A DNA stretch of 64,000 nt, taken from assembly GCA_977017645.1 (NCBI GenBank), contig OZ360222.1:225928001-225992000 (forward strand), written 5' to 3'. The first letter of the stretch is position 1. Every line of letters starts with the position of its first letter. Source of the DNA: Torpedo marmorata (lineage: Eukaryota). The translations under genes and the position numbers were made by a program. Shown here in pieces: positions 15,966-59,677 of this stretch. Under the pieces are notes generated by a model. That model made no database searches and was not told the origin of the DNA. It was given only the letters and a program-made list of their open reading frames with translations.

Positions 15966-17875
15966 TAACGTGGGACTGGGGTACAGAGGTGAAAAAAGCA
16001 AACTGCTGGAGAATTGCGATGGGTCGAGCCACATCTGGGGCAGGGCGTGGAATTGTCGATGTTTCGGGGCAAGAACATACAAGAAGTCTGAGACTGGAGA
16101 GGGAGTAGTCGGTAGAAAGTGGAGAAGGGGAGGGGTGAGTCAGGGTACAGTAGGCGACAGGTAGATCAAGGAGTTGTGAAGGATGATGGGTAGATGGAGC
16201 TAGGTGGGGTGGAGTTGGGAGGCAGGCAGGCCAGTGAATGGTGAAAGTTGAAAAGAAAAAAACTGTCAGTAGAACTAGGTGAAGTGTGGAGTGTGAAAAG
16301 TAGGGACATGAAGGCTACCAGTACTGGAATCTGATGAGTAAGGAATAAAGTAATGGGAACTAATTAAGGGAGAAGTGAAGAGCAGATAGGTAGGGGATCC
16401 AGTGTGTGAAATGTGCAGGAAGAAGGTGCGTTGAACCAGAAAAGGGAGGGAATGAAAAAGGGTGGAGGGGAGATGGAGGCAGTGCATAGGAAAGGAACAA
16501 AGTGTAAATGGCTGCTTGACAGTTAGCGTGATACAATGGGTTGGAGGGCATGTTTCCCTGTTACATGAAGCTTTTTTTTAAAATTAACCTACCTTTTCCA
16601 GAAATGGAATATTGGATACCCCAGCCAAAAGAGGTGATGTTCCCATTTGCCAACTCAATGAATTGTTTATTTCCAGTCTTTGAACTGACAGAATCAAGGC
16701 ACACTTATTAGCATCAATTTGCATGAGTACAGCAAGCTTTGACGGGCACTGTCTCTTGAATGTCCTCCAGTTTAAAATTGCGCAAAGAATTCCTAAAGTG
16801 TTGTTGGGTTGAACGTTGTTACTTGTGATAAGGCACCCACACTTCATATCTCATGATAAATAATCGCTAACCTTTGGCAGATCTTCCAGCGTTGACCTGC
16901 TATTAGTGGCATCTATATCTTTAATGGGAAGGCCTTGCAATTGTTTTAATGCAGTTTGAGATGTTGATGGCAACTTTGGAATTCATTGTTCATCACAAAG
17001 TGAACTACAAAGACAGTAAAGAGTCAACTGCATTAATGGGAGTGTCGTCACACATAAGTCTAACCACGTAAAAATGCCGTAATTCCTGAAGGATATTACT
17101 GAACCTGTTTGGTTTCAAATGACAATCCAGTAGTATTTTTAATCCAATCTCAGATTTGCATGAATTTAGGGTGGGATTTGAAGTTGTGTCCCTTGTTCAA
17201 TAGTCTGGAACTTTGGCTTCTGGACAAGTAACTGAACCACAATGCTTTGCCTCCACAGATGCTGCCTGGCCCACTGAGTTGCTCCAGCAGCTCTTAGTTT
17301 GGCAGTCCAGAACCAAGGGTTGCAGCCTCAGAATAATGTGTTCCAGTTCTGGTTCTGCACTCCCCCCCCCACCCCCCACATTACATTGTACTATGTACAG
17401 TGGTCTAGTCAATGTGACTGGGCTGTAGCCAGAGTTCTGAGCCAATTATAGTGACTTCAATCCAACCAATAGTCACTTGGAGGCTTGGCGAGATACTTGT
17501 TCTTTTTTAAAAAAAAGATTTTATTTAAAATTTTTAAATCACAAAATACATAAAATAAAATATGAAATTATCAAAATATTTGTGATACATTTTCACCCCC
17601 CCTCCCACCCTCCCCTCCCCAACCATCCCAACCCCACTAATCTAATAAAAATAAAAATATAAAATAAAAATAGAAAAAGAAGAAAAAAAAAGAAAAAGAT
17701 AAAGTCAGGAGAATGTCAATCTAATAAATACATCTATAAACTAATTCTATTATGGAGATCAGGTATGCCAGTAGATCCGATACCCAGAGATCTTCAAATC
17801 CTTAAACCAACAACTTTTATATTTGGGCTCCAAATTTTTAAGAAAAAATGATATTTGTTACGTAAATTATAAGTA

Positions 17876-18521
17876 CCGTATATTTCGGCGTATAAGTTGA
17901 CCCTTGAAACCCTCAAAAATGTCTCAAAAAACGGGGGTCGACTTATACACCGGATATACTTTTGAGACCTTAAAATCAGCTCAAAATCGAGTTCACGCCG
18001 ATTCGGCGTATAAGTCGACCCCTGAAAACACGATTCAGCGTATAGGTCGACCCTGGAAGCGCCTCCCCACCGCCAGCGCCGCCTCTCCACGACACCTCCT
18101 CACCGCCGGGCGCCGCCATAAACCACCCAGACATTCTACAATTGTAGAGCCTGAGGTCCCCGCTCCTACCCAGGAGAACGAGCTCCCCGCTCCTGCTCGG
18201 GAGAACGAGCTCCCCGCTCCTGCTCGGGAGAACGAGCTCCCCGCTCCTGCTTGGGAGAACGAGCTCCCCGCTCCTGCTCGGGAGAACGAGCTCCCCGCTC
18301 CTGCTCGGGAGAAAGACGTCGCCGCACCTGCATCTTCCCGGCCAGAAGCAAAGGTTTTTTTTACTGTTTTTTTTACTTACCGGTACTTGCTTAATTTACA
18401 GCTTTGTTACTTGGTGATTGGGATGTTGTAACAAATTTTGGGTTGTTGCTGGGAGGCCCAGACAGCCTGAAAATTGGGGGTCGACTTATCTGCCGGTCGA
18501 CTTATACGCCGAAATATATGG
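17876..18521. mobile_element. Tc1/mariner-pogo-type MITE inserted in the L1
   Basis: TIRs CCGTATATTTCGGCGTATAAG / CTTATACGCCGAAATATATGG; TA duplication; repeated internal TATAAGTCGACC motifs. Confidence 0.9.
18160..18312 (+). repeat. 27-bp GC-rich minisatellite (GAGAACGAGCTCCCCGCTCCTGCTCGG, ~5.5 copies)
   Basis: Directly visible near-perfect tandem repeats. Confidence 0.95.
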
Positions 18522-19768
18522 TAATTTTTTCAAGTGGTAGACACGAACGAAGTTCTGCATGCCATCTTTCTAATCCTAAATCTAAATCAGATTTCCAAGT
18601 AATAGCAATACATTTCTTTGAAACAGCTAAAGCAATTCGCAAAAATTCTATTTGATACATGTTTCATTTCACGAGATACTTGTTCTTGACGCATTTCAAT
18701 TAATTTACTAACAAGTCCAATAGGTTCAAAAACTTTATTAACACACGATGACTTGTAGCAATCTTCAATGACTTAAATATCTTCTTTAATGAAATATAAA
18801 CAATTCTTGATAACAATGTTTAATAACGATTCTTTAAAACGTCTTTAAACTTCCTTTAAAACGATTTTTTATAAATTCCTTTAAACATTTCTTTAAACGA
18901 TTCCTTTAAACGATTCTTTCTAACACTCATTTAAACGGTCAATGAAAGCTATGGCGATCTCACTCACCCTCCTCTAGGTCGCCATATTCTTATAACTTCT
19001 TCTCCCGATTAACATGCATGCCCGACCGCGCATACTCCACCGCGCATGCTCCACCGCGCATGCTCCAGCCACTTCCCCACTGCGCATGCGCCAGTCAGCA
19101 CTCCCGCGCATACGCAGAGTACTCAATAGGCCTAGCATAGCCTACTAATCTCCGTAACTCCTCCAAAACCCGCTGGATACATCAGAATGCCGCGATGAAG
19201 GTAAGTAACCAAGCCTATGTCTCTTACACCAATGTTCTGGAGACCTGAGACTGTTTCCCACCAGGTCAGCTGTAATTTCATTCAATTACTTAAGTAAATC
19301 TGGAATTAAAAATAATTTAGTCTCCGTAACCATGACCATGTAACTATTGAATTGTTATAAACACCCAAGTAGTTAATTAATGTCCTTCAGTGCAGGAAAT
19401 CTGGCACTCTCACCTCATCTGACCCATACGTTACTCCAGACCCACCAATGTGGTTGATTTTGAACTGCCTGTCAGAACTGCTGGCATTACCCAGGAATGA
19501 TGTGCCTCATCTGTTTTTCAAAAAACTTTTGTCCCCTCTTTTCCCACTCCAAATCCCAAACATTTTAAGTCTCACACTTCCCTCCACCCCCCTCACCAAA
19601 CCTATCATACTGCCAATTACCAACTTCTACCAGTGTGAGATGCACAAAAATGCATATTTTCCATGCAAGCTATACACTGTTAATTTTTACCATCCAGCTC
19701 TTAGTTGCAGGGAGATTGTTCAGTGGTTCTGTTATTAATCAAAGGGGTTTTACTTTGTTGATCTGCAG

Positions 19769-22355: not shown

Positions 22356-22753
22356 TTTAAAAATATTTTATTTAAAAATTTAAATCACTCGATAATACAT
22401 ATTGTAAAATGCAAAATTATCAAAATACATGTGATATATTTTCACCCCCCTCCCTCCCTCCCCTCCCTAACCCTCCCACCCCTACTATTCTAATAAAATA
22501 AAAAGAAAAAAGAAAGAAAGAAAAAGATAAAGTAAGGAGAATGTCAATCTTCTGCTTGGATTAGAATAGAACTAAATAATATAGGAGAAGATTTCAAAGA
22601 AGAAGTTATTTATAAATGAAATTCTAAATTATTATTAAGAGGAGGTAAAAATTCTCATATTTTAAAACATTTGTTAGTAATATGGAATAAGGTGGATAGG
22701 GACATAGGAGGGAAAGGATTAATTTCGCGAAAAATGCCTTTATGTCAAAATAA
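22356..22753 (-). mobile_element. Short L1 insertion with 5' inversion inside ERV pro-pol
   Basis: Minus-strand 3'UTR/poly(A) 22356-22548 joined to plus-strand ORF2 piece 22549-22753; TSD ACCCACAGAGTTTT / ACCCAAAGAGTTTT. Confidence 0.8.
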
Positions 22754-22794
22754 ACCCAAAGAGTTTTGACCAGCAAGAGTTCCGGAATGGAATT

Positions 22795-25700
22795 TTGCAG
22801 TACTGGCCTAATGTACAATCATGTTTGGCAATAATCCGTCATCTCATCCCTACCACCAAAATTTCGAAAGAAACCAGCCTAGATTTATGGACAGCTTCAG
22901 CCTACGAGGTTGGCCTAACCATGATCCCCCCGGTCCATATCTACATTAAGCTAGGTGTAACCCTCCCCTCTATCCCACAATACCATTTAAACCCGAAGAA
23001 AGAAGGGGTCAGACAGCTGATCGTGTCCTTATTGCATCAGAATATATTAGTGCCTTGCCAGTCCCCTTGCAATACTCCAATTTTCCCCATCCCTAAGCCT
23101 GGGCGACAGGAATGGAGGTTGGTGCAAGATTTACGGAAAATTAATGAGATAGTTCAACCGATCCATTCCATTGTCTCAAACCCCGCTACTATCCTTAGCC
23201 AGATACTTGCAGATTCCACAATATTCACTATTATAGACCTACAGCATGCGTTTTTTGCAATCCCACTGCACCCAGACTCTCAGTATCTCTTTGCATTTAC
23301 GTACGATGGCTCACAGTACACATGGACCCGGTTACCACAGGGTTTCGTACACTCACCCACTATCTTTTCTCAAACGTTGCATAGTCAGCTGCAGTCTATC
23401 GTGCTTCCTAGACATTCAACCATCGTGCAATATGTGGATGATCTATTACTGGCTAGCCCGACCATTGAGGCAAACGCACAGGATACGCCTTTCCTCCTCA
23501 ATGCACTGCACTCCTTTGGTTAAGGCTGGTCAAAAACAGGTAAAGTTTCTTGGAACTCTCCTCAGTGCCACAGAACGTGCCCTCACCCCGGAATGAACAC
23601 AACCGCTCATCACTTTTCCTCAACCAACTACACCGAAACAAAAGCGCTCATTTTTGGGACTAGTTAATTATTGCCGCCAATGGATTCCAAACATAACCAC
23701 CTACACTCGTCTGTTATCTCCATACGCCTCATCAAATGCTCCCCAAACTTATACGTTAACCCCCAAAAAAATGGAGGCTTTTACCAAACTGCATACAGCC
23801 CTCCAGCCCTCGGTCGACCATTATACGACCGCCCCTTTCAGCTATATGTTACTGTTTTAGAAGCATGTGCCACAGCAGTCTTGATACAGCAACATGGCTC
23901 TTACAAGCGGCCAGTTACGTATTACTCCAGTGGCCCAGGACATGGCACCGTGCACCCAGATCCTTCCTGCAGTATACAATTTGGTTTTAGCGGCAGCTAA
24001 TATCACCTTACATCAGCCAGTACAGGTCTTTACGCAACATACTGTGGCGGCTTTACTTACATCCAAACAAACCCAACACCTCACTCAGGCTCGCGTGAAT
24101 GAGATTGCTCTTCTAAGTAACCCATTACTGAATTTCTACAACTGTATAGCGATTAATCCAGCCACTTTCATCACAGACCCACCCGTGGAGATGCAGAACC
24201 CACCCCATGATTGCTTGGAACATAATCACAGGTTGACCACATCTAGGGAGTATTTGCTAGATATCCCATTTAAGGACCCCCAATGTCTTTACTTTGTAGA
24301 CGGCACATCATATGTTGATGACAGGGGCCAACGTTGTGCAGCATATGCTGTGGTTACCCTAACAGCGATAATTGAGGCAGCAGCCTTCGCACAACCAGTA
24401 TCTGCACAGAAAGCGGAACTGTTTGCCCTCACTCGACCGTGTATTTTGTCCAAAGACCAGCCTTCAGTCATTTATACGGATTCCTGGTATGCTTTTGGGG
24501 TGGCTCACAACTTTGGTGCGTTATGGCAGTCTAGGGACTTCTTGACGACGGCGGGTATACCTATCAAAAATTCCATTTTTGTCCATAATCTGCTCAAAGC
24601 AATTAACCTTCCAAGCAAATTGGCCGTTATCAAATGTGAAGCACAAGCTAATAAAACAGACCTTGTCTCTCAGGGTAATACAATGGCAGATGAGGCAGCA
24701 AAACAGGCAGCCACCACTCACATTCTTCAGATTCAGATTTCAGATTTCAGATTTTAGATTTCAGATTTATTGTCAGAGTACATACATGACGTCACATACA
24801 ACCCTGAGATCCTTGAAGTTCCCACTGAAATTGCCAGTGAATTAACAAACAGACATGTCACACGTAAAACAATGGCAGGGGGACGCCCCAGCCACAGAAC
24901 AACAGTCATGGGTTGAAATGGGATGTAAGACCTATCCAACCACTGGATTGTGGATAACACCGGCCAGTCAAATATGTGTACCAGATGTATTTTTACCATT
25001 CTTGCTTGATTACATTCATACTTGTACCCATGTTGGCAAGGAGGGAGTGGTGGAAGTGCTATTGCAAACATGGTGGCACCCAAAATTAGCACAGGCAGCA
25101 GAGAGAAAGACTAGAAGCTGCATGATATATAAAACACATAACCCTGGAAAGGGGATATCTTGTGCCCCAGGACAAACACCCTTGCCAGATGAACCATTTT
25201 CGTGCTTACAGCTTGATTTTATCGTGATACCACGTGTACATAGTTATAAACATTGTTTAGTAATAATAGATGTTTTTAGTCGATGGATGAAGGCAATACC
25301 CATCATGGACAATACCGCTCTAACTGTGGTAAAGATACTATTCCGGGAAATTATACCCCGGTTCGATCTGCCCGAGGCAATAAGTTCAGACAATGGTCCT
25401 CATTTTGTGGCTAAAATAAATGAGGAACTGTGTAATCAATTGGATATTCGGCAACAATTCCATTGCTCCCATTATCCACAGGCGGCAGGAATTGTGGAAC
25501 GGGCCAATGGAATGTTAAAAAATAAACTCGCTAAATTTACAGAGGAAACTGGACTAAATTGGCTAAAGATGCTACCCTTGGCATTATTTGAAATACTCTG
25601 GCTTATCACCTGCAGAGATAATCTATGGGCGACCCCTGCGAACACCTTGGGGAGCACAGTCCAGGAAAATCACAGCATGTGATTTGCTGTCCCTGGGAGA

Positions 25701-26031
25701 AGAATTAATTCAGTATGTCAAAGAACTAACTAAAATATTTCAGGTTTTACATTTGCAGGTACGCCACGCCTATCGCGAGGAATCAGAAGAGAGGGAAGAG
25801 GGTCAACTCCGGCTTGAGCCAGGAGACTATGTCCTGATCAAGAACTGGGGTCGGAGAAAGCTGGAACCATGGTGGAAGGGCCACTTCCAAGTGCTACTAA
25901 CAACTCCGACCGCAGTAAAGGTAGAAGGACAGCCTCATTGGATTCATCACACAGACTGCAAAAGGATTGGTTCCACGGAGGAACAACATGACTCTGACAA
26001 GAGAAAAGGGATTATAAGACAATACAAATGA
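22795..26031 (+). pseudogene. pol: ERV pol (RT, tether, RNase H, integrase), frameshifted
   Basis: WRLVQDLR, LPQGF, YVDD; RNase H YFVDG/SAQKAEL/YTDS; integrase SSDNGPHF, VERANG; WKGHF (GPY/F-like). Confidence 0.92.
24727..24812 (-). mobile_element. Very short LINE 3'-tail insertion (Rex1/Babar-type) between RNase H and integrase
   Basis: (CAGATTT)n followed by TTTATTGTC = reverse complement of AATAAA plus microsatellite tail, like the Rex tail at 53535-53553. Confidence 0.6.
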
Positions 26032-26242
26032 ATGGCTGAAGCGAATGCTCATTACCTTTTTGGGGGCTCTTGTCATTTTTTTGACTGTCCTGTTCGTGGT
26101 ACATAAGGTAAAAGAATGTGTGGAATTAAATCTCCAGGCAGGTTCACGGTCCTTAAGATCAAAACGAGAAAGGCATGACAACACTTACCTACGTATGTCC
26201 CTGATGTATGTTGAAACTATGAATGTGTCTCATTGTTGGGTC

Positions 26243-29200
26243 TGTGGTAAACCACTTTGTATGTATTATGGCCTGAGGCAGGTATGACCATGACCTGTCT
26301 GTCTGTCCCGGTGACCCCTCCCCCCTTTACCTGGAATAAAGGCCTTGAGCCAGCAACTCCTCCCCCAGTTCCGGGACAATCCAGCAGGGATCATCAGGTC
26401 AAGGCATAGTCAGCCCTGGCTTTGATTCTGTTAATAAAAGCCTGTTAATTCCTGCACTTCTAGACTCGTGTCGGTTATTGATAGGTATATCAATTTTATT
26501 AACAGTTTCAACAAAATACGAATCAATGGAGAATTTGTTAAAGCCAGACAAGCTAGACATCGACCCCCTGGCCCAAGACGCTGCAAGCGATTTCGAACTG
26601 TGGCAACGCTGCTTCACAGCCTACGTGAGGTCGTCCGGAGCGGCTACCGACGAGCAGAAACTCGATATCCTCATGTCCAGGGTAAGCAAGCGAGTGTATG
26701 GCGCCGTCAGAGACTGTGGGACTTTTGAGGATGCCTTGGTCGCCCTCCGAACGCTGTACATGACGCCTGCGAACGAGATTTTCGCAAGGCACCGGATATC
26801 GCAGCGGTACCAGCGACCCGGAGAGTCGGTCTCCGAATATATCCAGGACGTGATGCTCCTGGTACGAGCGTGTGACTGTCGAGCCCTGACGGCTGAGCAA
26901 CACTCCGAGATTCTGGCAAGGGACACTATCATAAAAGGGATCAGGTCGGGCTACATCCGCCAGCGATTGCTGGAACACGCCGACCTGACCCTGAAATCGA
27001 CTGTCCAGAACATCCTGAATCTGGACTCAGCCCTAAAGAACGCTGACGCTATGCAGGCGCAGCCTGCTTCTTGGATCGCCCCAACCGTCAGCCCTACAAG
27101 CAACGCGACGGCTGCTGCCGTCTACCGGGACCCGCTCGCCGCCGCCGACGCTATCCGTGAGTTGGCCGCTGCCGCCGCTGCCCGAGAGCCCGCCGCTACC
27201 CGTGAGTTAACCGCTGCCGCTATCACCCGGGAGCCCGAGAAGTGCTACTTCTGCGGGCTCGACAAGCACCCACGCAAGCGCTGCCCGGCCCGAGACGCGA
27301 CTTGTTCTAGCTGTGGCAAGAAAGGCCACTATGCTAAGGTCTGCCGCTCCAAGTCGCGCACGGGTCCGAGCAGCGCCGCGTGCGAGGTACGGGAGCGGCC
27401 ATCTTACTCGACTCCACTTCCGGCGGAGACCTCGTGTGAGGTCTGGAGGCAGCCATCACAGCGCGCAGCACTTCCGTTTTCCAGCAGCGCCACGTGCGAC
27501 GGGAGGGGGCGGCCATCTTACCCGACGTCACTTCCTGAGGAGACCTCGTGTGAGGACTGGAGGCGGCCATCTTGGTCCACACATCCGATCTCTACATTTC
27601 CGGCGCGGCCATTTTATAATCTCACCGCAGCACTTCCAGCACTCCCGGCTCCACCCCCTCGTAGCGACACGTACGAGCTACGGGAGCTGCCACCGGATCA
27701 AGATCAAGACTTCGTCTCGACCCTGGCATCCGTGACGCTGGACCAGAGCGCGCCCCATCAACTGTCCAGATCCATGATGGACATCCTCGTTGAGGGGCAT
27801 AAGACCACCTGCCTGTTCGACACAGGCAGTACAGAAAGTTTTATCCATCCTGACACTGCCCAGCGCTGTGGCCTCACCATTGTACCGGTAAGCCAGAGGG
27901 TGGCCATGGCGTCTGGAACGCACACAATAGACATCCGGGGGGGTTGTGTGGCGAATATAGTGGTACAGGGCACGGAATATCGGGAGTTTTCATTGTTAAT
28001 CATGCCCCGTTTGTGTGCTCCTGTATTGCTGGGATTGGACTTCCAAAGCCACCTGCGTAGCGTCACCATGCACTATGATGGGCCCCACCCCCCAATCGTT
28101 GTGACTAACCCCCAATATTTAATTAATACGCCCCAGAATACCTGTGGTCTCTCCACACTAAAGACCCAACCCCCGCCACTCTTCGCCAACCTGACCCCTG
28201 ACTGTAAGCCCATCGCAACTAAAAGTAGGCGATACAGTGCAGGGGACAGGGCATTCATTAAGGCGGAGGTGCAGCGTTTACTGGGGGAAGGGATCATTGC
28301 ACCCAGTAACAGCCCCTGGAGAGCACAGGTAGTCGTGGTGAAGAACGGGGCTAAGAGCCGGATGGTGGTGGACTATAGCCAGACCATCAACCGGTTCACG
28401 CAACTGGACGCCTATCCGCTGCCGAGGATCGCGGATATGGTCAACCAGATTGCTCAATACAAAGTCTTCTCCACCATCGACCTTAAGTCGGCTTACCACC
28501 AGCTCCCAATCTGCCGGGAGGACCGAGTATACACCGCTTTCGAGGCGGACGGCAGATTATTCCATTTTCTGCGCGTTCCCTTCGGGGTAACAAATGGGGT
28601 ATCCGTGTTCCAAAGGGAGATGGACAGGATCATTGACCAGTTCAAGCTCACTGCCACCTTCCCGTACCTGGACGACATCACCATCTGTGGTCATGATCGC
28701 CAGGATCACGACAGGAACCTTCGGAAGTTCTTACAGGCGGCCGAGACGCTGAACCTCACATATAACAAGGAGAAATGCGTGTTCGGGACTACCCGACTCG
28801 CTATCCTGGGGTGCGTCGTGGAAAACGGGGTGATTGGACCCGACCCCGACCGCATGCGCCCCCTGTTGGAACTTCCGATCCCCGTTACCCCCAAAGCACT
28901 TAAACGATGCCTCGGGTTTTTCTCCTATTATGCGCAGTGGGTCCCAAACTACTCGGACAAAGCCCGACCCCTCGTCAAGTCCACCAAGTTTCCCCTGGCA
29001 GCGGAGGCACGTGAGGCTTTCGACCTCATAAAGGGGGACATCGCCCGAGCAGCGATGCACGCGGTGGACGAGTCGGAACCTTTTCAGGTAGAGAGTGACG
29101 CCTCGGACTTCGCACTGGCTGCTACCCTCAACCAGGCGGGAAGACCGGTAGCGTTTTTCTCCCGCACCCTTCAAGGCCCTGAAATTCGGCACTCCGCGGT

Positions 29201-30971
29201 AGAGAAAGAGGCCCAGGCCATTGTCGAGGCTGTCCGGCACTGGAGGCACTATCTCGCCGGAAAACATTTTACCCTGCTGACGGACCAGCGCTCCGTCGCT
29301 TTCATGTTTAACAGCCAGCAGCGGGGTAAAATTAAAAATGATAAAATCATGAGGTGGAGAATAGAACTCTCCACCTACAATTACGACATCCTTTACCGGC
29401 CCGGGAAGCTCAACGAGCCCCCTGACGCTCTATCCCGGGGATCGTGCGCCAGCGCGCAGATCGACCGGTTATACGCCCTACATAATGACCTCTGCCACCC
29501 AGGAGTCACCAGGCTGTTCCACTTCATTAAAGCACGGAACCTGCCTTTCTCCCTGGATGAGGTCAAGACCATGACCAGCAGCTGCCGAGTCTGTGCGGAA
29601 TGCAAACCGCAGTACTACCGCCCCGACAGAGCACAGCTGGTCAAAGCCACCCGCCCTTTCGAACGTCTCAGTATAGACTTCAAGGGCCCCCTCCCCTCCA
29701 CGAACCGCAATGTGTACTTCCTCAACATCATCGATGAGTACTCGCGGTTCCCCTTTGCCATCCCCTGCCCAGACACCTCGGCGGCGTCGGCTATCAAGGC
29801 TCTCCACCAGGTTTTCACCGTGTTCGGGTTCCCCAGCTATGTCCACAGCGACCGGGGGTCCGCGTTCATGAGCGGGGAGCTGCGACAGCACTTGCAGACC
29901 CGAGGCATCGCTACCAGCAGGACCACGGGGTACAACCCACGGGGGAACGGACAGGTGGAGAGGGAGAACGCCACAGTATGGACAGCGACACTACTGGCCC
30001 TGAAAGCAAAAGGGTGGCCAGTGGCTCGCTGGCAGGAGGTTCTCCCGGACGCACTCCACTCTATACGATCCCTCTTATGTACCGCCACTAACACTACCCC
30101 TCACGAACGTATCTTTTCCTTCCCCAGAAAATCGACCACCGGGACTACACTCCCTGCCTGGCTGACGTCCCCGGGGCCGGTGCTACTCCGCAAACATCTT
30201 CGGAGTAGCAAGTACGAGCCCTTAGTCGAGAGGGTGCAGCTGATCCATGCAAACCCGCAGTACGCATTCGTGGTTCTCCCCGACGGGCGGGAAGACACGG
30301 TGTCAATACGGGACCTGGCACCTGCAGGAGCGTCTGAAGAGGTCCCCGACAGCGGGAACGCCGGGTCGCAGCTGCCCCCTCCGGACCATCCGCCTCCCAG
30401 CACGACGTTGTCCCCGTCACAGCTGTACTGGCCACTAGCCAGGCAGGAGGCGAACCAGCCCCAGATCCACCATACTGTACCTACTCCCATTCCGCAGCCA
30501 CAACCATCTCCGCGGGCACCACGTATTTTCACTCGTACCCTCATTCCACAACCACTACCATCACCGCTGGCGCTACGCAGGTCACGGCGGCAAATCCGGC
30601 CGCCGGCGAAACTCGACCTGTAAAAACTGTATATTATCTATGTATTCTGTATTTCTTTTCTTCTCTTTTTACAGTATCCACTTCACCCCCCCGTCGGACT
30701 TGTTCTAAAAGAAGGGGTGAATGTGGTAAACCACTTTGTATGTATTATGGCCTGAGGCAGGTATGACCATGACCTGTCTGTCTGTCCCGGTGACCCCTCC
30801 CCCCTTTACCTGGAATAAAGGCCTTGAGCCAGCAACTCCTCCCCCAGTTCCGGGACAATCCAGCAGGGATCATCAGGTCAAGGCATAGTCAGCCCTGGCT
30901 TTGATTCTGTTAATAAAAGCCTGTTAATTCCTGCACTTCTAGACTCGTGTCGGTTATTGATAGGCATATCA
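26243..30971 (+). mobile_element. Full-length, very young Ty3/Gypsy LTR retrotransposon
   Basis: 250-bp LTRs 26243-26492 and 30722-30971 (TG...CA, one mismatch seen); TSD GGGTC; PPT AAAAGAAGGGGTGAA. Confidence 0.97.
26526..30623 (+). CDS. Gypsy single gag-pol polyprotein (Gag with two zinc knuckles, PR, RT, RNase H, IN)
   Basis: Uninterrupted ORF, likely starting MENLLKP at ATG 26526; CSSCGKKGHYAKVC, FDTGS, YLDD, SDASD, H-H-C-C zinc finger, SDRG..VERE. Confidence 0.95.
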   Translation: MENLLKPDKLDIDPLAQDAASDFELWQRCFTAYVRSSGAATDEQKLDILMSRVSKRVYGAVRDCGTFEDALVALRTLYMTPANEIFARHRISQRYQRPGESVSEYIQDVMLLVRACDCRALTAEQHSEILARDTIIKGIRSGYIRQRLLEHADLTLKSTVQNILNLDSALKNADAMQAQPASWIAPTVSPTSNATAAAVYRDPLAAADAIRELAAAAAAREPAATRELTAAAITREPEKCYFCGLDKHPRKRCPARDATCSSCGKKGHYAKVCRSKSRTGPSSAACEVRERPSYSTPLPAETSCEVWRQPSQRAALPFSSSATCDGRGRPSYPTSLPEETSCEDWRRPSWSTHPISTFPARPFYNLTAALPALPAPPPRSDTYELRELPPDQDQDFVSTLASVTLDQSAPHQLSRSMMDILVEGHKTTCLFDTGSTESFIHPDTAQRCGLTIVPVSQRVAMASGTHTIDIRGGCVANIVVQGTEYREFSLLIMPRLCAPVLLGLDFQSHLRSVTMHYDGPHPPIVVTNPQYLINTPQNTCGLSTLKTQPPPLFANLTPDCKPIATKSRRYSAGDRAFIKAEVQRLLGEGIIAPSNSPWRAQVVVVKNGAKSRMVVDYSQTINRFTQLDAYPLPRIADMVNQIAQYKVFSTIDLKSAYHQLPICREDRVYTAFEADGRLFHFLRVPFGVTNGVSVFQREMDRIIDQFKLTATFPYLDDITICGHDRQDHDRNLRKFLQAAETLNLTYNKEKCVFGTTRLAILGCVVENGVIGPDPDRMRPLLELPIPVTPKALKRCLGFFSYYAQWVPNYSDKARPLVKSTKFPLAAEAREAFDLIKGDIARAAMHAVDESEPFQVESDASDFALAATLNQAGRPVAFFSRTLQGPEIRHSAVEKEAQAIVEAVRHWRHYLAGKHFTLLTDQRSVAFMFNSQQRGKIKNDKIMRWRIELSTYNYDILYRPGKLNEPPDALSRGSCASAQIDRLYALHNDLCHPGVTRLFHFIKARNLPFSLDEVKTMTSSCRVCAECKPQYYRPDRAQLVKATRPFERLSIDFKGPLPSTNRNVYFLNIIDEYSRFPFAIPCPDTSAASAIKALHQVFTVFGFPSYVHSDRGSAFMSGELRQHLQTRGIATSRTTGYNPRGNGQVERENATVWTATLLALKAKGWPVARWQEVLPDALHSIRSLLCTATNTTPHERIFSFPRKSTTGTTLPAWLTSPGPVLLRKHLRSSKYEPLVERVQLIHANPQYAFVVLPDGREDTVSIRDLAPAGASEEVPDSGNAGSQLPPPDHPPPSTTLSPSQLYWPLARQEANQPQIHHTVPTPIPQPQPSPRAPRIFTRTLIPQPLPSPLALRRSRRQIRPPAKLDL

Positions 30972-31987
30972 GGGTCTGCACCCAATTGCCAACCAACAGT
31001 GGTCAGGGAGTCCCTATGATATCAATACCATTTAATCAGACAGAACATCAGGCCTGGAAATGCCACTCTAATCGGACTTTGAGCATTATAAAAAAAACAT
31101 CTGAATGCTGACCTATTACACATTTGTTCTGTCCAAGTCACCCCGCTATTTTAAACTAAACAGGTACAATATAGGGGGAACCTGTTTGTGCAGGGGAAAT
31201 GAAAATAGGACAGGAACGGGCCATTGTACCAAAATAAGTGATCAATTTGGCTATTTTACAGGGGAAGCAACCTTAAATGGTACCTATCTTTGTGATGGAC
31301 AAAAAGTGTATCCATGGCTGCCATACTATTGGCAAAGGTGTTATTATTTAACTTACCTTGCCCCAGCGATACGGCATTTTGAGGATATTACTGACCATCC
31401 TTTGGTACGGGATAGAGTAAAAAGAGCCATCTCTGAAACTGGGCGGTTTTTAATGACTATTTTTCCCAATTATGGTGTGGCTAAAGCCACTCGGGAACTG
31501 ATCAATGTGGCCAGTGCCCAAGAAAAACTTGCCAACACTACTGCAAGGATTGAAGTAAATACGCAGACCCAGATTCGTGAACTCACTGCGGAGGTAGTGG
31601 CTATACGAACCGTGGGTCTGCAGAATCGGACGGCCCTTGATCTGCTGTTGGCAGAACGAGGTGGTACATGTGAAGTAGTAGGACAGGAATGCTGCACCTA
31701 CATCCCTGATGCCTCTGAAAATATCACCCATTTGCCGAACCACATTGGGGAACAAATATGCGATGTCCAGAAAATAGGGGAACAGTTCCATAATTACAAC
31801 CCCCCCGGGACCATCTTGGTGGCCTTTCAAAGGAAGGTGGACAACATTTATTCAGGGTCTGTGTGTCCTGGCTATTATTTTATTAGTTGTGTTGATCTTG
31901 CGACTCTTTTGTATGATCCGATTATGTTTAAAGAACAAATTATTCTTACTACCAAATAAGTTATCATGGAATGATAAAAGGAGGGAA

Positions 31988-55355: not shown

Positions 55356-56749
55356 CTTTAAATAATGGTGTACAACCATTCATATTCAGCCAGTTGGTGT
55401 AAGTTCAAGTCAAGTTTATTGTCATCTGATTGCACAAGTACAACCCAACAAAATAGCGTTCTCCAGTCCACAGTGCAAAACACACAACCAGACGTAACTC
55501 ACATACAGACAAGCATTGATATATACAAATGTGGTAACCTCTACTTTGAAAAAGGACCACTCGACAACTTCAAGCTCAAAAGAACAACTTTACATGGAAC
55601 AGCAAAACTATACAGAGACTTGTTTTCGCCCTCTGGCCACACACAGCATGGCCTGCAAGCTATATACAAGGCACACAGGAAGTAAAGAAGACAGACAGGA
55701 AGTAAAACCCCTCCCAGCCTCACTTTAAAAACAGCTCTCCCCCCCACCTTAAACACTGACAACACTGCTCCCCCTGTAAGAGGTTTAGTTACTTAACTTG
55801 GTCACGGCACTCTGATGGTCTCGGCAGGTTTCGGAGGAGACGTGGAGGTTGGTGGGCCGTGCTGGGCCTATTTAGTGCTCTGCACATGCGCAGTGGGGGA
55901 GTGGCTGGAGCATGCGCAGTTGGGAAGTGACGGCAGTATGCGCGGTGGAGTATGCGCGGTGAAATATGTTCAGTGAGCATGTGTGAATTGGGGAAGAAAG
56001 TATAGAAAAAGATGGCGACAAAGGAGGGTGAGTGAGATTGCTATATCTTTCATTGACCGTTTCATTGAACGTTTAAAGACATTTAAAGGAATTGTTTAAA
56101 GGAATAATTTAAAGGAATTTATTAAGCATTGTTATCAAGAATTGTTTATATTTCATTAAAGAAGATATTAAGTCATTGAAGATTGCTACAAGTCACGTGT
56201 GTAAATAAAGTTTTTTAAACCAATTGGACTTGTTAGTAAATTAATTGAAACGCGTCAAGAACAAATGTCTCACCTAGCCTCCAAGTGACTATTTGTTGGA
56301 TTGAAGTCACTATATTTTATTCAATGAAAGTGGCTGTTTGGAACAGAAAATTGAAGGAAAGAAGATATAATAATCTCTCTGTGCTTTGGACTGATATTTA
56401 AAATAAAATGACGGCCATCTTGGAGATGCCTCGGGTTAGGGGCAGTTTGAATAACAGCCAGAGAGGGATTTAGAGCTTCAAATCTTATAGTAAAGTGTAC
56501 TATAAATACGTTGGAGAAATCATTTTTGGAAAATCAGCGATATTATTGACGGATGTTGTGGTTGAAACTCGTTTGTGAATAGCAGCACATTACAGCCATC
56601 TGAAGTGGTAGGCATAAGTCTGTAGACTCCTTCTGTGTATCTTTGGCAAGTTAGAACACAGATTGGATTTGCTGCCGCTAGTCCATTGGGGATTGTTGAT
56701 TTGGCTAGTGTTGTGTATGCTTGAAGGAGAGTGGAACAAGTCGAGTAAA

Positions 56750-56860
56750 ATGGCCGCAGCAGCCTCTGATACAGCGGCAGCTGACGCAGCAATCGCTGAT
56801 GTTGCTGTTAAGGACCAACATATTGAAAACATGAAGGTTGCGGATATTAAAGAAGAATTA
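56750..56860 (+). pseudogene. Probable gag N-terminus with SAP-like motif (MAAAASD...IENMKVADIKEEL), cut by CR1
   Basis: ATG in good context (AAAATGG); KVADIKEEL resembles SAP helix 1; truncated at the CR1 tail. Confidence 0.5.
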
Positions 56861-57836
56861 GACAATAGACAATAGACAATAGGAGCTGGAGTAGGCCCTT
56901 CGGCCCGTCGAGCCAGCACCGCCATTTTACAGATCATGGCTGATCGCTACTATCAGTACCCCTTTCCAGCCTTATCCCCATAACCCTTAACTCCCCTGCC
57001 CACTAGAGTCTTATCTAACTCTCTTTCGAACATAATCAGCGAATCTGCCTCTACCACCCTCTGTGGCAAAGCATTCCACAGATTCACACTTCTCTGGGTA
57101 AAAACATTTTTTCTCATCTCCGTCCTAAAGGGCCTTCCCTGTATTCTTAAACTATGCCCTCTAGTCCTCATCTCTCCCATCATTGGGAACAAGTAATCTG
57201 ATTCCACACTGTCTATCCCCTTGATAATCTTGTATACCTCAATCATGTCCCCCCTCATCCTTCTAAATTCCATCGGATATAAGCCCAGTTTTTCTAAGCT
57301 TTCAGCATATGTCAATCCTGCCATCCCTGGAACTAACCTTGTAAATTTGCACTGCACACCCTCTACAGCTAGTATGTCCTTCCTCAAATTTGGGGACCGG
57401 AACTGGACACAATACTCCAGGTGAGGTCTCACCAGGGCCCTGTACAACTGCAGGAGGGCATCTCTGCTCCTATACTCCAATCCCCTCTTTATGAAAGCCA
57501 ACATGCCATTTGCCTTCTTCACAGCTTTCTGAACCTGCATGTTAGCCTTCAGTGACCGGTGAACAAGTACACCCAGATCCATTTGCACTTCCCCACTCCC
57601 TAGCTTGTCTCCATTTAAATAATACTCAGCTTTCCTATTACTGCCCCCAAAATGGATAACCTCACATTTGCTCACATTGAACTTCATCTTCCATTCCTCA
57701 GCCCACTCCCCCAACCTGTCCAAGTCCCTCTGCATTTTCCTGACATCCTCCTCACACTTTACACCACCACCCAGTTTAGTGTCGTCTGCAAATTTGCTCA
57801 TGTTATTAATAATCCCTTCATCCAAATCATTTACAT
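56860..57836 (-). mobile_element. CR1 LINE, 5'-truncated, open 290-aa RT C-terminus
   Basis: KFADDTKL, LYRALVRPHLEYCVQF, TRGHSLR; (CTATTGT)n tail. Confidence 0.93.
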
Positions 57837-59677
57837 AAACAAGTCACGTGTGTAAATAAAGTTTTTTAAACATATTGGACTTGTTAGTAAATTAATTGAA
57901 ACGCATCAAGAACAAGTGTCTCACCTCGCCTTCAAGTGACTATTTGTTGGATTGAAGTCACTATACCCCCCTTAAAATCCAACATGCCCCAAATATAAAA
58001 GAACAATGGTGTCATGAGCTTGCATACTCCTAAAACTTATAATAACGTCTCAGCAACAATTTAATAATACAAAAACATCTAAAAAACGTGGCAGATTCCA
58101 CTTTCAGTCTATTAAAAAAACTGTCCAATCAAAGATCCAGTCTGTCAGGAGGTTTGTGAGTGCGCTGTGATCTGCTCACTAACCCCGATGACCCAGCAGG
58201 CACCGCTGATGAAGGTGTTTTGGGTGGATCTGGTGTTGGGGGCATATGAGGGGTCTGTGCGTCCATGTGGGAATGTCCATCCTCTTCAGGGGACTCAGAC
58301 CCCTCTGCCAGCGTCTGGCAAAGTCACTGGGGAACACACTTCCACAGTAGTCTGTCTCACCATTGGAAACTCCATGGAACTGTCCGTCTCTGAGTATGTA
58401 TCATGACACAAGCGCACATGGTCCTGATGTCTGCGGAAAACACGTCCATCAGTCAGATTAACAACATAGGAGACAGGCCCACTCTGCTTAAGAATAACCC
58501 CGGGTAGCCATTGCTGATTGTTTTTCACATAGACATTGTCATCTGGTTTTAACTGTCCCTCCTGCTTTCTCTCCACTCTTGCCTTCATGTCCGGGCGCAG
58601 CAGGTCCAATCTTGACTTGGGCCTACGCCCCATCAGCTTCTCCGCTGGAGTGCGTGCAGTTGTAGTCTGCGGAGCAAGGCGGTATTTAAACAAGAAATGT
58701 GAAAGCCTGATGCTAGGAGAGTCCCCTGTCATCCTCTTCAGGTCTTCCTTCACTGTCTGAACCGCCCGCTCAGCCAAACCATTTGAGGCTGGGAGGAAAG
58801 GGGCCGTCCGAATGTGATGAATGCCATTCTGCTGCATAAACTCACTGAACAGCTCACTGGTAAATGTCGGGCCATTATCAGTGACCAGAGTGTCAGGCAA
58901 CCCCTGGACTGCAAACACTTGCCTGAGTTTGTCTATGGTTGAGTGGGCTGGAATGTTGCCAATGATGTGAGCTTCTATCCATTTGGAATGTGCATCCACC
59001 ATTACTAGAAACATCTGCCCCATAAAAGGGCCAGCAAAGTCCAAATGTAGCCTAGACCAGGGTCGGTCTGGCCATTCCCATGGGTGCAAAGGAGCTGCTA
59101 GTGGCATTTTCTGATTGATCTGACATTGCGTGCATGATTTTACCTTGTTCTCCAGATCCTGATCCATTCTTGGCCACCAGACGTAGGATCTTGCAAGACT
59201 TTTCGTTCGAGACACCCCTGGATGAGTCTCATGAACTTCCTCCACAATCTTTGAATGGCCAGAGGGTGGCATGATGACCATCGCCCCCCCAGAAAATGCA
59301 GCCATCTTGCAGACTCAATTCTATCTTACGTTTGGCATAAGGCTTCAGTTCCTCTCCTTCCACAATAGTGGGCCATCCTTTTAAAAGGAAAGTCTTGACT
59401 TGAGACAGGACTGAGTCCCTCTCTGTCCACTGCTTTATCTGAGTCGCCTTTACAGATGTCTCTGACAGCCTCTCCAATGAAAACACCGTCTCTGGAGGCA
59501 CATATGTCATATCCGGTGTCTCAGGTAAAGGTAGACGACTCAGCGCATCGGCATTTGCATTATCCCCACCTTCTCTGTACACAATAGTGTACTGGTAGGC
59601 TGACAATGTGAGAGCCCAGCGCTGTATCCTAGCTTTAAACTGGCTGTATATGAATGGCTATACACCATTATTTAAAT

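Follow-up and report, generated by a model that had tools for sequence, protein, structure and literature searches.

LTR-complementary sequence covarying at the primer-binding position of a BEL/Pao retrotransposon family in Torpedo marmorata: a candidate signature of self-priming

Introduction

How does minus-strand DNA synthesis begin in an LTR retrotransposon whose leader carries no TGG next to the LTR? The question is raised by an element at positions 55775-57965 of the window, as we call the 64,000-nucleotide stretch of contig OZ360222.1 of Torpedo marmorata analysed here. For BEL/Pao elements, whose replication is poorly understood, tRNA priming is assumed, and the ICTV gives tRNA-Arg or tRNA-Gly, annealed to an 18-nt primer-binding site (PBS), as the primer of the Belpaoviridae (PMC8742986). 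Self-priming is described for Tf1, Tf2, Tj1 and sushi elements in excerpts of PMC7175516, PMC4600332 and PMC5341516, and self-primers were predicted from sequence for Tcn1 (gypsy) and for TAR, Houba and Osr-1 (copia) in excerpts of PMC6317226. A first-pass annotation of the window had proposed that the PBS position of our element is complementary to its own LTR, that a Gypsy element at 26243 follows the same design, and that both reflect tRNA-independent priming.

Results

The window copy and its family

The element at 55775-57965 is a dead BEL/Pao LTR retrotransposon copy. Its 5' LTR (55775-56314, plus strand, 540 nt, TG...TA), both ends of which are common to genome copies with 5-bp target-site duplications, follows a left duplication CCCCC (55770-55774; empty sites have six C, the window five plus six) and contains an AATAAA at 56204-56209, the likely poly(A) signal judging from its sequence and its conservation in the alignment. 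Gag (56750-56872, plus strand) is broken where the SAP domain, known from an intact relative, begins; since only its first 41 codons are left before foreign DNA, the window copy is dead. Searched alone, this gag piece gave no Pfam match. The remaining gag-pol and most of the 3' LTR are replaced by inserted SINE/LINE-like DNA (56873-57838), presumably SINE/CR1, with a weak RVT_1 match on its minus strand (E 1.8e-4), and a 127-nt 3' LTR remnant (57839-57965, plus strand) follows, 95% identical to the 5' LTR, and then the right duplication. The element sits exactly in the polypurine tract of another LTR element, a minus-strand Gypsy whose integrase lies at 58295-59311 (minus); the site is empty in other copies of this host element, hence no targeting is evident. 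A minus-strand LTR reading with CCCCCC as its own polypurine tract was rejected, the tract being that of the host Gypsy and forming the target-site duplication. A solo LTR of the same family (17447-19228, minus, duplication ATTGG) is interrupted by an insertion of about 1.2 kb, within which lies a 27-nt repeat array (18126-18341).

The pol of the window copy is lost, and its Pao-type class is read from copies and relatives. Family copies carry Peptidase_A17, DUF1759 and integrase, an RNase H region is present in relatives, and an intact relative, with homologues mainly from fishes and no named superfamily references among them, has the full BEL/Pao order SAP-DUF1759-DUF1758-RT-A17-IN-DUF5641, so that the gag-PR-RT-RH-IN order is found in family copies and relatives. 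The LTRs, at 410-690 nt, lie within the 0.2-1.2 kb of BEL/Pao, with a purine tract before the 3' LTR. These domains are BEL/Pao, not the gypsy-type RT and chromodomain integrase of Tf1/sushi elements. The genome search for the family gave 2230 candidates, of which 40 were scored; 20 copies read to 10 kb showed TG...TA ends, 5-bp duplications and a GGGGCCGG tract. The viral contigs searched held no relative, and no LTR pair was obtained for the family C matches L137-L140.

Some features of this group stand apart from priming. Gag of the window's BEL clade starts with a SAP domain (window 56750-56872; L144:2415-8468). Five loci (L053, L056, L058, L060, L064) represent many copies of 5.3-6 kb without RT; such copies have a coiled-coil-like frame of about 200-275 aa ahead of the 3' LTR, which in the L053 example has no Pfam match. 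A strong antisense splice-donor motif lies about 15-30 nt into the LTR in L002, L006, L007 and most family copies and is partly lost in the window 5' LTR; its place near the left LTR end hints at outward transcription.

A match between the PBS position and the LTR

The sequence directly after the LTR end at 56314 is TTTTATTCAATGAAAG. It begins with a spacer TTTTA (56315-56319, plus strand), predicted to be unpaired, followed by the PBS-position site at 56320-56330 (plus), which in the family is GTCAATGAAAG and in the window carries a private G-to-T change at 56320. The family consensus after the LTR, T(A/G/-)TTTA-GTCAATGAAAG, gives an 11-nt match to the LTR sequence CTTTCATTGAC at 56047-56057 (plus), the predicted 3' end of a self-primer; the private mutation trims this match in the window to 10 nt, with CTTTCATTGA at 56047-56056 as the target, and produces the likeness to the Gypsy leader. 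The first-pass annotation was accurate in all its coordinates (LTR end, both targets, TATA-like motif, U5 arms and solo LTR), and the self-complementarity it had pointed to exceeds chance: the 10-nt match was reached by 4 of 300 LTR shuffles, and the longest match in host DNA past the window 3' LTR is 6 nt. The target is also retained, as claimed, in the solo LTR (18939-18948, minus).

Thirty loci were collected and 29 copies scored, the one dropped having an unmatched LTR-end motif and likewise no TTTTATT. In 25 of the 29 the site is GTCAATGAAAG after a spacer of 5-6 nt, a conservation biased upward by the presence of the leader in the search query; the target, which was not in the query and covaries with the site, is found in 19, and 17 are fully self-complementary. 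TTTTATT, proposed as a shared leader, occurs in a single scored copy, that of the window, and does not stand. Across relatives the spacer takes 0, 2, 4, 5 or 6 nt, the right LTR end thus floating relative to the PBS, and in most families of the genome this end is TA or AA, not CA (window 56311-56319; L141, L144, L162, L170); integrase trimming seems variable among families.

Three other details of the proposed layout stood in part. The tandem partial copy of the target, TTTCATTGAA at 56060-56069 (plus), is present in the window and in some copies only, and the 10-nt match there hinges on the private G-to-T change. The TATA-like motif TATAGAAAAA (56001-56010, plus), about 45 nt upstream of the target, is likewise present in the window but not conserved, with TATA[A/G] in only 11 of 27 copies. 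The U5 terminal hairpin (56284-56311, plus; AGTGACT at 56284-56290 with AGTCACT at 56305-56311) is paired in 97% of cells over 13 LTRs and has a variant GCGAC/GTCGC in families A and E, but taken alone it is weak (z -1.04, equalled by 27 of 200 shuffles).

As for tRNA priming, no TGG was found within the first 10 nt of any of 18 leaders. The annotation had named TGGCTG at 56331-56336 (plus) as a tRNA PBS that would speak against its own proposal. That case failed: the position reads TGGCTG in 14 of the 29 copies, TGGTTG in 10, AGGTTG in 3 and otherwise in 2, and no fitting tRNA gene was found. Nor does the window's family have the 18-nt tRNA-Arg or tRNA-Gly PBS of the Belpaoviridae description, a family that is defined by phylogeny.

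Covariation of site and target

The covariation check suggested with the proposal came out in its favour: site and target shift together in four related BEL families, over 9-15 nt, and in a metagenome relative. The pairs are GTCAATGAAAG/CTTTCATTGAC, GTCAATAAAAG/CTTTTATTGAC, GTCAATAAAG/CTTTATTGAC and TCAAAGAAATT/AATTTCTTTGA, together with GTCAACAAAAA/TTTTTGTTGAC, a contiguous 11-nt match, in the metagenome record L172. Each covarying state was equalled by 0-5 of 300 shuffles, and 3' host flanks reach 5-7 nt. Families A and D have other sequences, with matches up to 15 nt (0-2 of 300 shuffles as good), and family D has two 15-nt site/target states. Among 39 distinct 5' junctions of the clade, 29 are perfect over 9-12 nt, 2 include G-U and 8 are broken, the window copy among them. 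Site and target carry a matched substitution in L167 and L312. In young intact relatives, whose site starts 0 or 2 nt past the LTR, they show a matched one-base indel. The polarity of the match fits extension into U5, and a PBS-position site with about 11 nt complementary to the element's own LTR is what characterises the Tf1 type.

Intron-bearing distant relatives

Eighty metagenome loci were considered, 8 of them with a defined right LTR end, plus L246, the twin of L249. In L187, L211, L221 and L227 the match, of 11-14 nt, spans a GTAAG...AG intron of 117-164 nt inside the LTR; only matches with a GTAAG donor and 4-6 nt in exon 1 were counted, in a splice-junction search run without shuffle control, in which the window copy itself gave a 10-nt match with 2 nt in exon 1. 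By inspection, L246 has a 10-nt junction-spanning match; on the LTR of L249 itself the script detected no such match. L207 has a 10-nt match directly after the acceptor, the donor part lying outside the sequence covered, and L225 has 7 nt only after the acceptor and no donor. A looser scan of 10 further metagenome loci gave leads from L182, L195 and L232. The LTR target starts right after a strong splice acceptor in L187, L207, L211, L221, L225, L227, L246/L249 and L195. A junction-spanning match would need an RNA that starts upstream of the donor. In an RT-RNase H tree, midpoint-rooted without an outgroup, the contiguous forms group as a clade with support 0.995, placed among the intron-bearing elements, which suggests that the contiguous form arose through intron loss. 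Within the window LTR itself, a candidate intron from GG/GTGAGT to CCTAG was rejected, with no spliced genomic copies and the AG absent in some copies; no acceptor common to 30 donor-variant loci was found.

A helix between U5 and the segment upstream of the target

We add here a covarying helix of 15-16 bp that is predicted in the window's clade between U5 and a segment upstream of the target. Its 5' strand, segment a (56023-56038, plus; 24-8 nt upstream of the target), contains the splice-donor-like GG/GTGAGT, and its 3' strand, segment u (56267-56282, plus), is segment a's best partner in the LTR. The window helix reaches -22.3 kcal/mol (0 of 40 shuffles as good), and values of -14 to -26 kcal/mol were obtained in 43 LTR variants chosen by motif. 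In all 4 clade members compared, u is the best LTR partner of a, equalled by 0-1 of 40 shuffles, and the helix is 93% paired over 13 LTRs. Two pairs are changed on both sides, tracing to one subfamily and thus to few events, and the transcribed strand has G-U pairs at more positions than its complement does. In family D, L172, L132 and the intron-bearing relatives the helix did not reach significance, and outside the window's clade it is not supported. A local hairpin h1 (56012-56044, plus; 56012-56018 with 56038-56044) is kept in the family, and extended forms of it would overlie the start of the target; it shows one CG-to-AT double change between subfamilies, and its within-family changes may be CpG decay.

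In nested folding the target-PBS duplex formed only when the RNA began no more than about 4-20 nt from the target. Its probability was 0.92-0.99 in 4 of 7 copies with the start placed at the target and 0-0.04 in 6 of 7 with the start at least 45 nt upstream, where the duplex is lost because the a-u helix is stronger. The strand order a, target, u, PBS makes a pseudoknot until the primer is cut, a form that the folding program cannot produce. The a-u helix suggests, for the clade, an RNA that starts upstream of 56023 and an internal primer. The start near 56047 put forward in the first-pass annotation is unproven, and indirect evidence points further upstream. The contigs of three RNA runs showed neither a start site nor a GT-AG joint, a result that speaks neither for nor against either start. 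An alternative role for the a-u helix would be in the 3' LTR, ahead of polyadenylation.

The Gypsy element at 26243

The Gypsy at 26243-30971 is young and intact, with a 1424-aa frame and the duplication GGGTC; no chromodomain match was found in it. It lies in a broken endogenous retrovirus (22723-26242 and 30972-31959) with pieces of RT, RNase H, integrase and env (TLV_coat). Its PBS-position site TTTTATTAACAG (26494-26505, plus) and LTR target CTGTTAATAAAA (26428-26439, plus) belong to a leader-LTR pairing of 12-13 nt found in three covarying states (0 of 300 shuffles). The 40 scored matches to its 5' junction were all identical over 241 nt, and no covariation was gained from them. Since its target lies over AATAAA or ATTAAA, 53-54 nt short of the LTR end, the match may reflect either self-priming with a short R region or poly(A) masking.

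The claim that the two elements share one design could not be upheld. They belong to different superfamilies and differ in layout: in the Gypsy, TTTTATT itself is in the duplex, pairing with AATAAAA, whereas in the BEL elements the T-rich bases are a spacer of 0-6 nt left out of the pairing, and the window's BEL copy reads TTTTATT through a private mutation. The parallel between them is solely the self-match at the PBS position. The broader proposal, that more than one lineage primes itself without a tRNA, draws support from covariation in the BEL/Pao families and, separately, in this Gypsy.

Discussion

We consider it probable that the family with the covarying LTR-complementary sequence at the PBS position primes minus-strand DNA with its own RNA in some form. 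For the internal-primer form of self-priming the chances appear about even. It would run as follows. Transcription would begin upstream of 56023, and the 5' end of the RNA would fold with a on u and the target on the PBS, which would require the two helices to coexist. The RNase H of the RT, as in Tf1, would then probably cut immediately 3' of the target and free a 3'-OH facing U5. Integrase would finally remove the spacer of 0-6 nt; a spacer of 5-6 nt would require such trimming.

What competes most directly is a strict Tf1 geometry, in which the RNA would start at 56047 or no more than about 4 nt from it, its first 11-15 bases would be the primer, and h1 and a-u would act at the 3' LTR only. 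The dominance of the target-PBS duplex in nested folding for starts at the target, the sharp 5' edge of the match and the Tf1 precedent (excerpts of PMC7175516) argue for it. On the other side, no TATA lies about 30 nt upstream, the TATA-like motif being limited to the minority of copies given above, segment u lies about 60 nt beyond AATAAA, and the intron-bearing relatives require an upstream start. We also counted for this geometry the CCATATC just upstream of the target, which we take to be initiator-like. On balance it appears rather unlikely, and an upstream start with an internal primer, itself a matter of equal chances, is favoured over it.

The pairing might instead be a structural element, serving packaging, dimerisation, poly(A) or splicing control, with a host RNA, an RNA fragment or a protein as the primer. 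Several alternative helices in the region are compatible with this, and the match of the 26243 Gypsy, which covers AATAAA, suits poly(A) control; yet in every family examined the match falls exactly at the PBS position with an extendable end toward U5, and its sequence differs from family to family, a variation that a fixed host primer would not track. We regard this explanation as unlikely. Ordinary tRNA priming at TGG(C/T)TG (56331), with the complementarity arising by chance, is very improbable. The ICTV description of tRNA-Arg and tRNA-Gly priming (PMC8742986) and the TGG kept in 25 of 29 copies speak for it, but the motif is variable and 16-17 nt from the LTR end, family D has no nearby TGG, the tRNA-gene pattern fitting a TGGCTG 3' end gave 2 matches against 1 in the control, neither of them a tRNA, and the covariation excludes chance.

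Returning to self-priming with an internal primer, a joint reading of all these observations is possible but tentative. A large aquatic BEL/Pao clade would take as its primer an internal piece cut from its own capped 5' end, and this piece would hold the template at two places, as a tRNA does in retroviruses: by its 3' 11 nt on the PBS and by the 15-16 nt upstream on U5. By opening h1, U5 would make the 5' target available and leave the 3' copy hidden, since U5 follows only in the 5' copy and h1 would be opened there alone. The contiguous primer would derive by intron loss from splicing relatives, and an unrelated Gypsy without chromodomain would self-prime independently.

Self-priming as such is a known mechanism; on the sequences compared, its signature in BEL/Pao is real and covarying. 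According to excerpts of PMC7175516, PMC4600332 and PMC5341516, Tf1 and Tf2 of S. pombe, Tj1 and the Tf1/sushi group of Ty3/gypsy likewise have a PBS of about 11 nt matching their own LTR, no tRNA site and an adjacent U5 stem. The window family differs from them in being BEL/Pao, in lacking a chromodomain, in its spacer of 0-6 nt and in the extra a-u helix; its primer, moreover, is probably not the first 11 bases, and in distant relatives would span a splice junction. Under the rule used for Tcn1 and TAR, a match of at least 10 nt starting 0-5 nt past the LTR, copies with a 5-nt spacer fit and those with 6 nt fall just outside; these elements, with Houba and Osr-1, are plant and fungal lineages, unlike the window family (excerpts of PMC6317226). 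With the Belpaoviridae and Semotivirus the family shares domain set and order, LTR length and, in intact relatives, a single gag-pol frame, and it departs from their description in having no 18-nt tRNA-Arg/Gly PBS and LTRs ending in TA, not CA (PMC8742986).

A further likeness is to HIV-1. There, the primer activation contact uses a pairing arm of the tRNA. In excerpts of PMC1865047, the HIV-1 primer activation signal is a second primer-template contact upstream of the PBS, with the strand order of a-u; the HIV-1 primer being a tRNA, the likeness would be structural only.

The literature searched, with Repbase reports, GyDB and subscription papers outside the search, yielded no paper on self-priming in BEL/Pao; passages of PMC3601003, PMC10886601 and PMC7472051 were among the material covered. 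The main text of PMC3118150 has neither "primer" nor "tRNA", and that of PMC554778 has no "tRNA".

BEL/Pao is a major LTR superfamily of animals, and a covarying self-match across many of its families would make it the third superfamily with self-priming. Were the primer internal or spliced, it would depart from that of Tf1, the sole experimentally proven case. The elements described here would escape annotation tools that depend on a TGG PBS. If the reading is true, the clade would be independent of host tRNA and hence of PBS-directed silencing.
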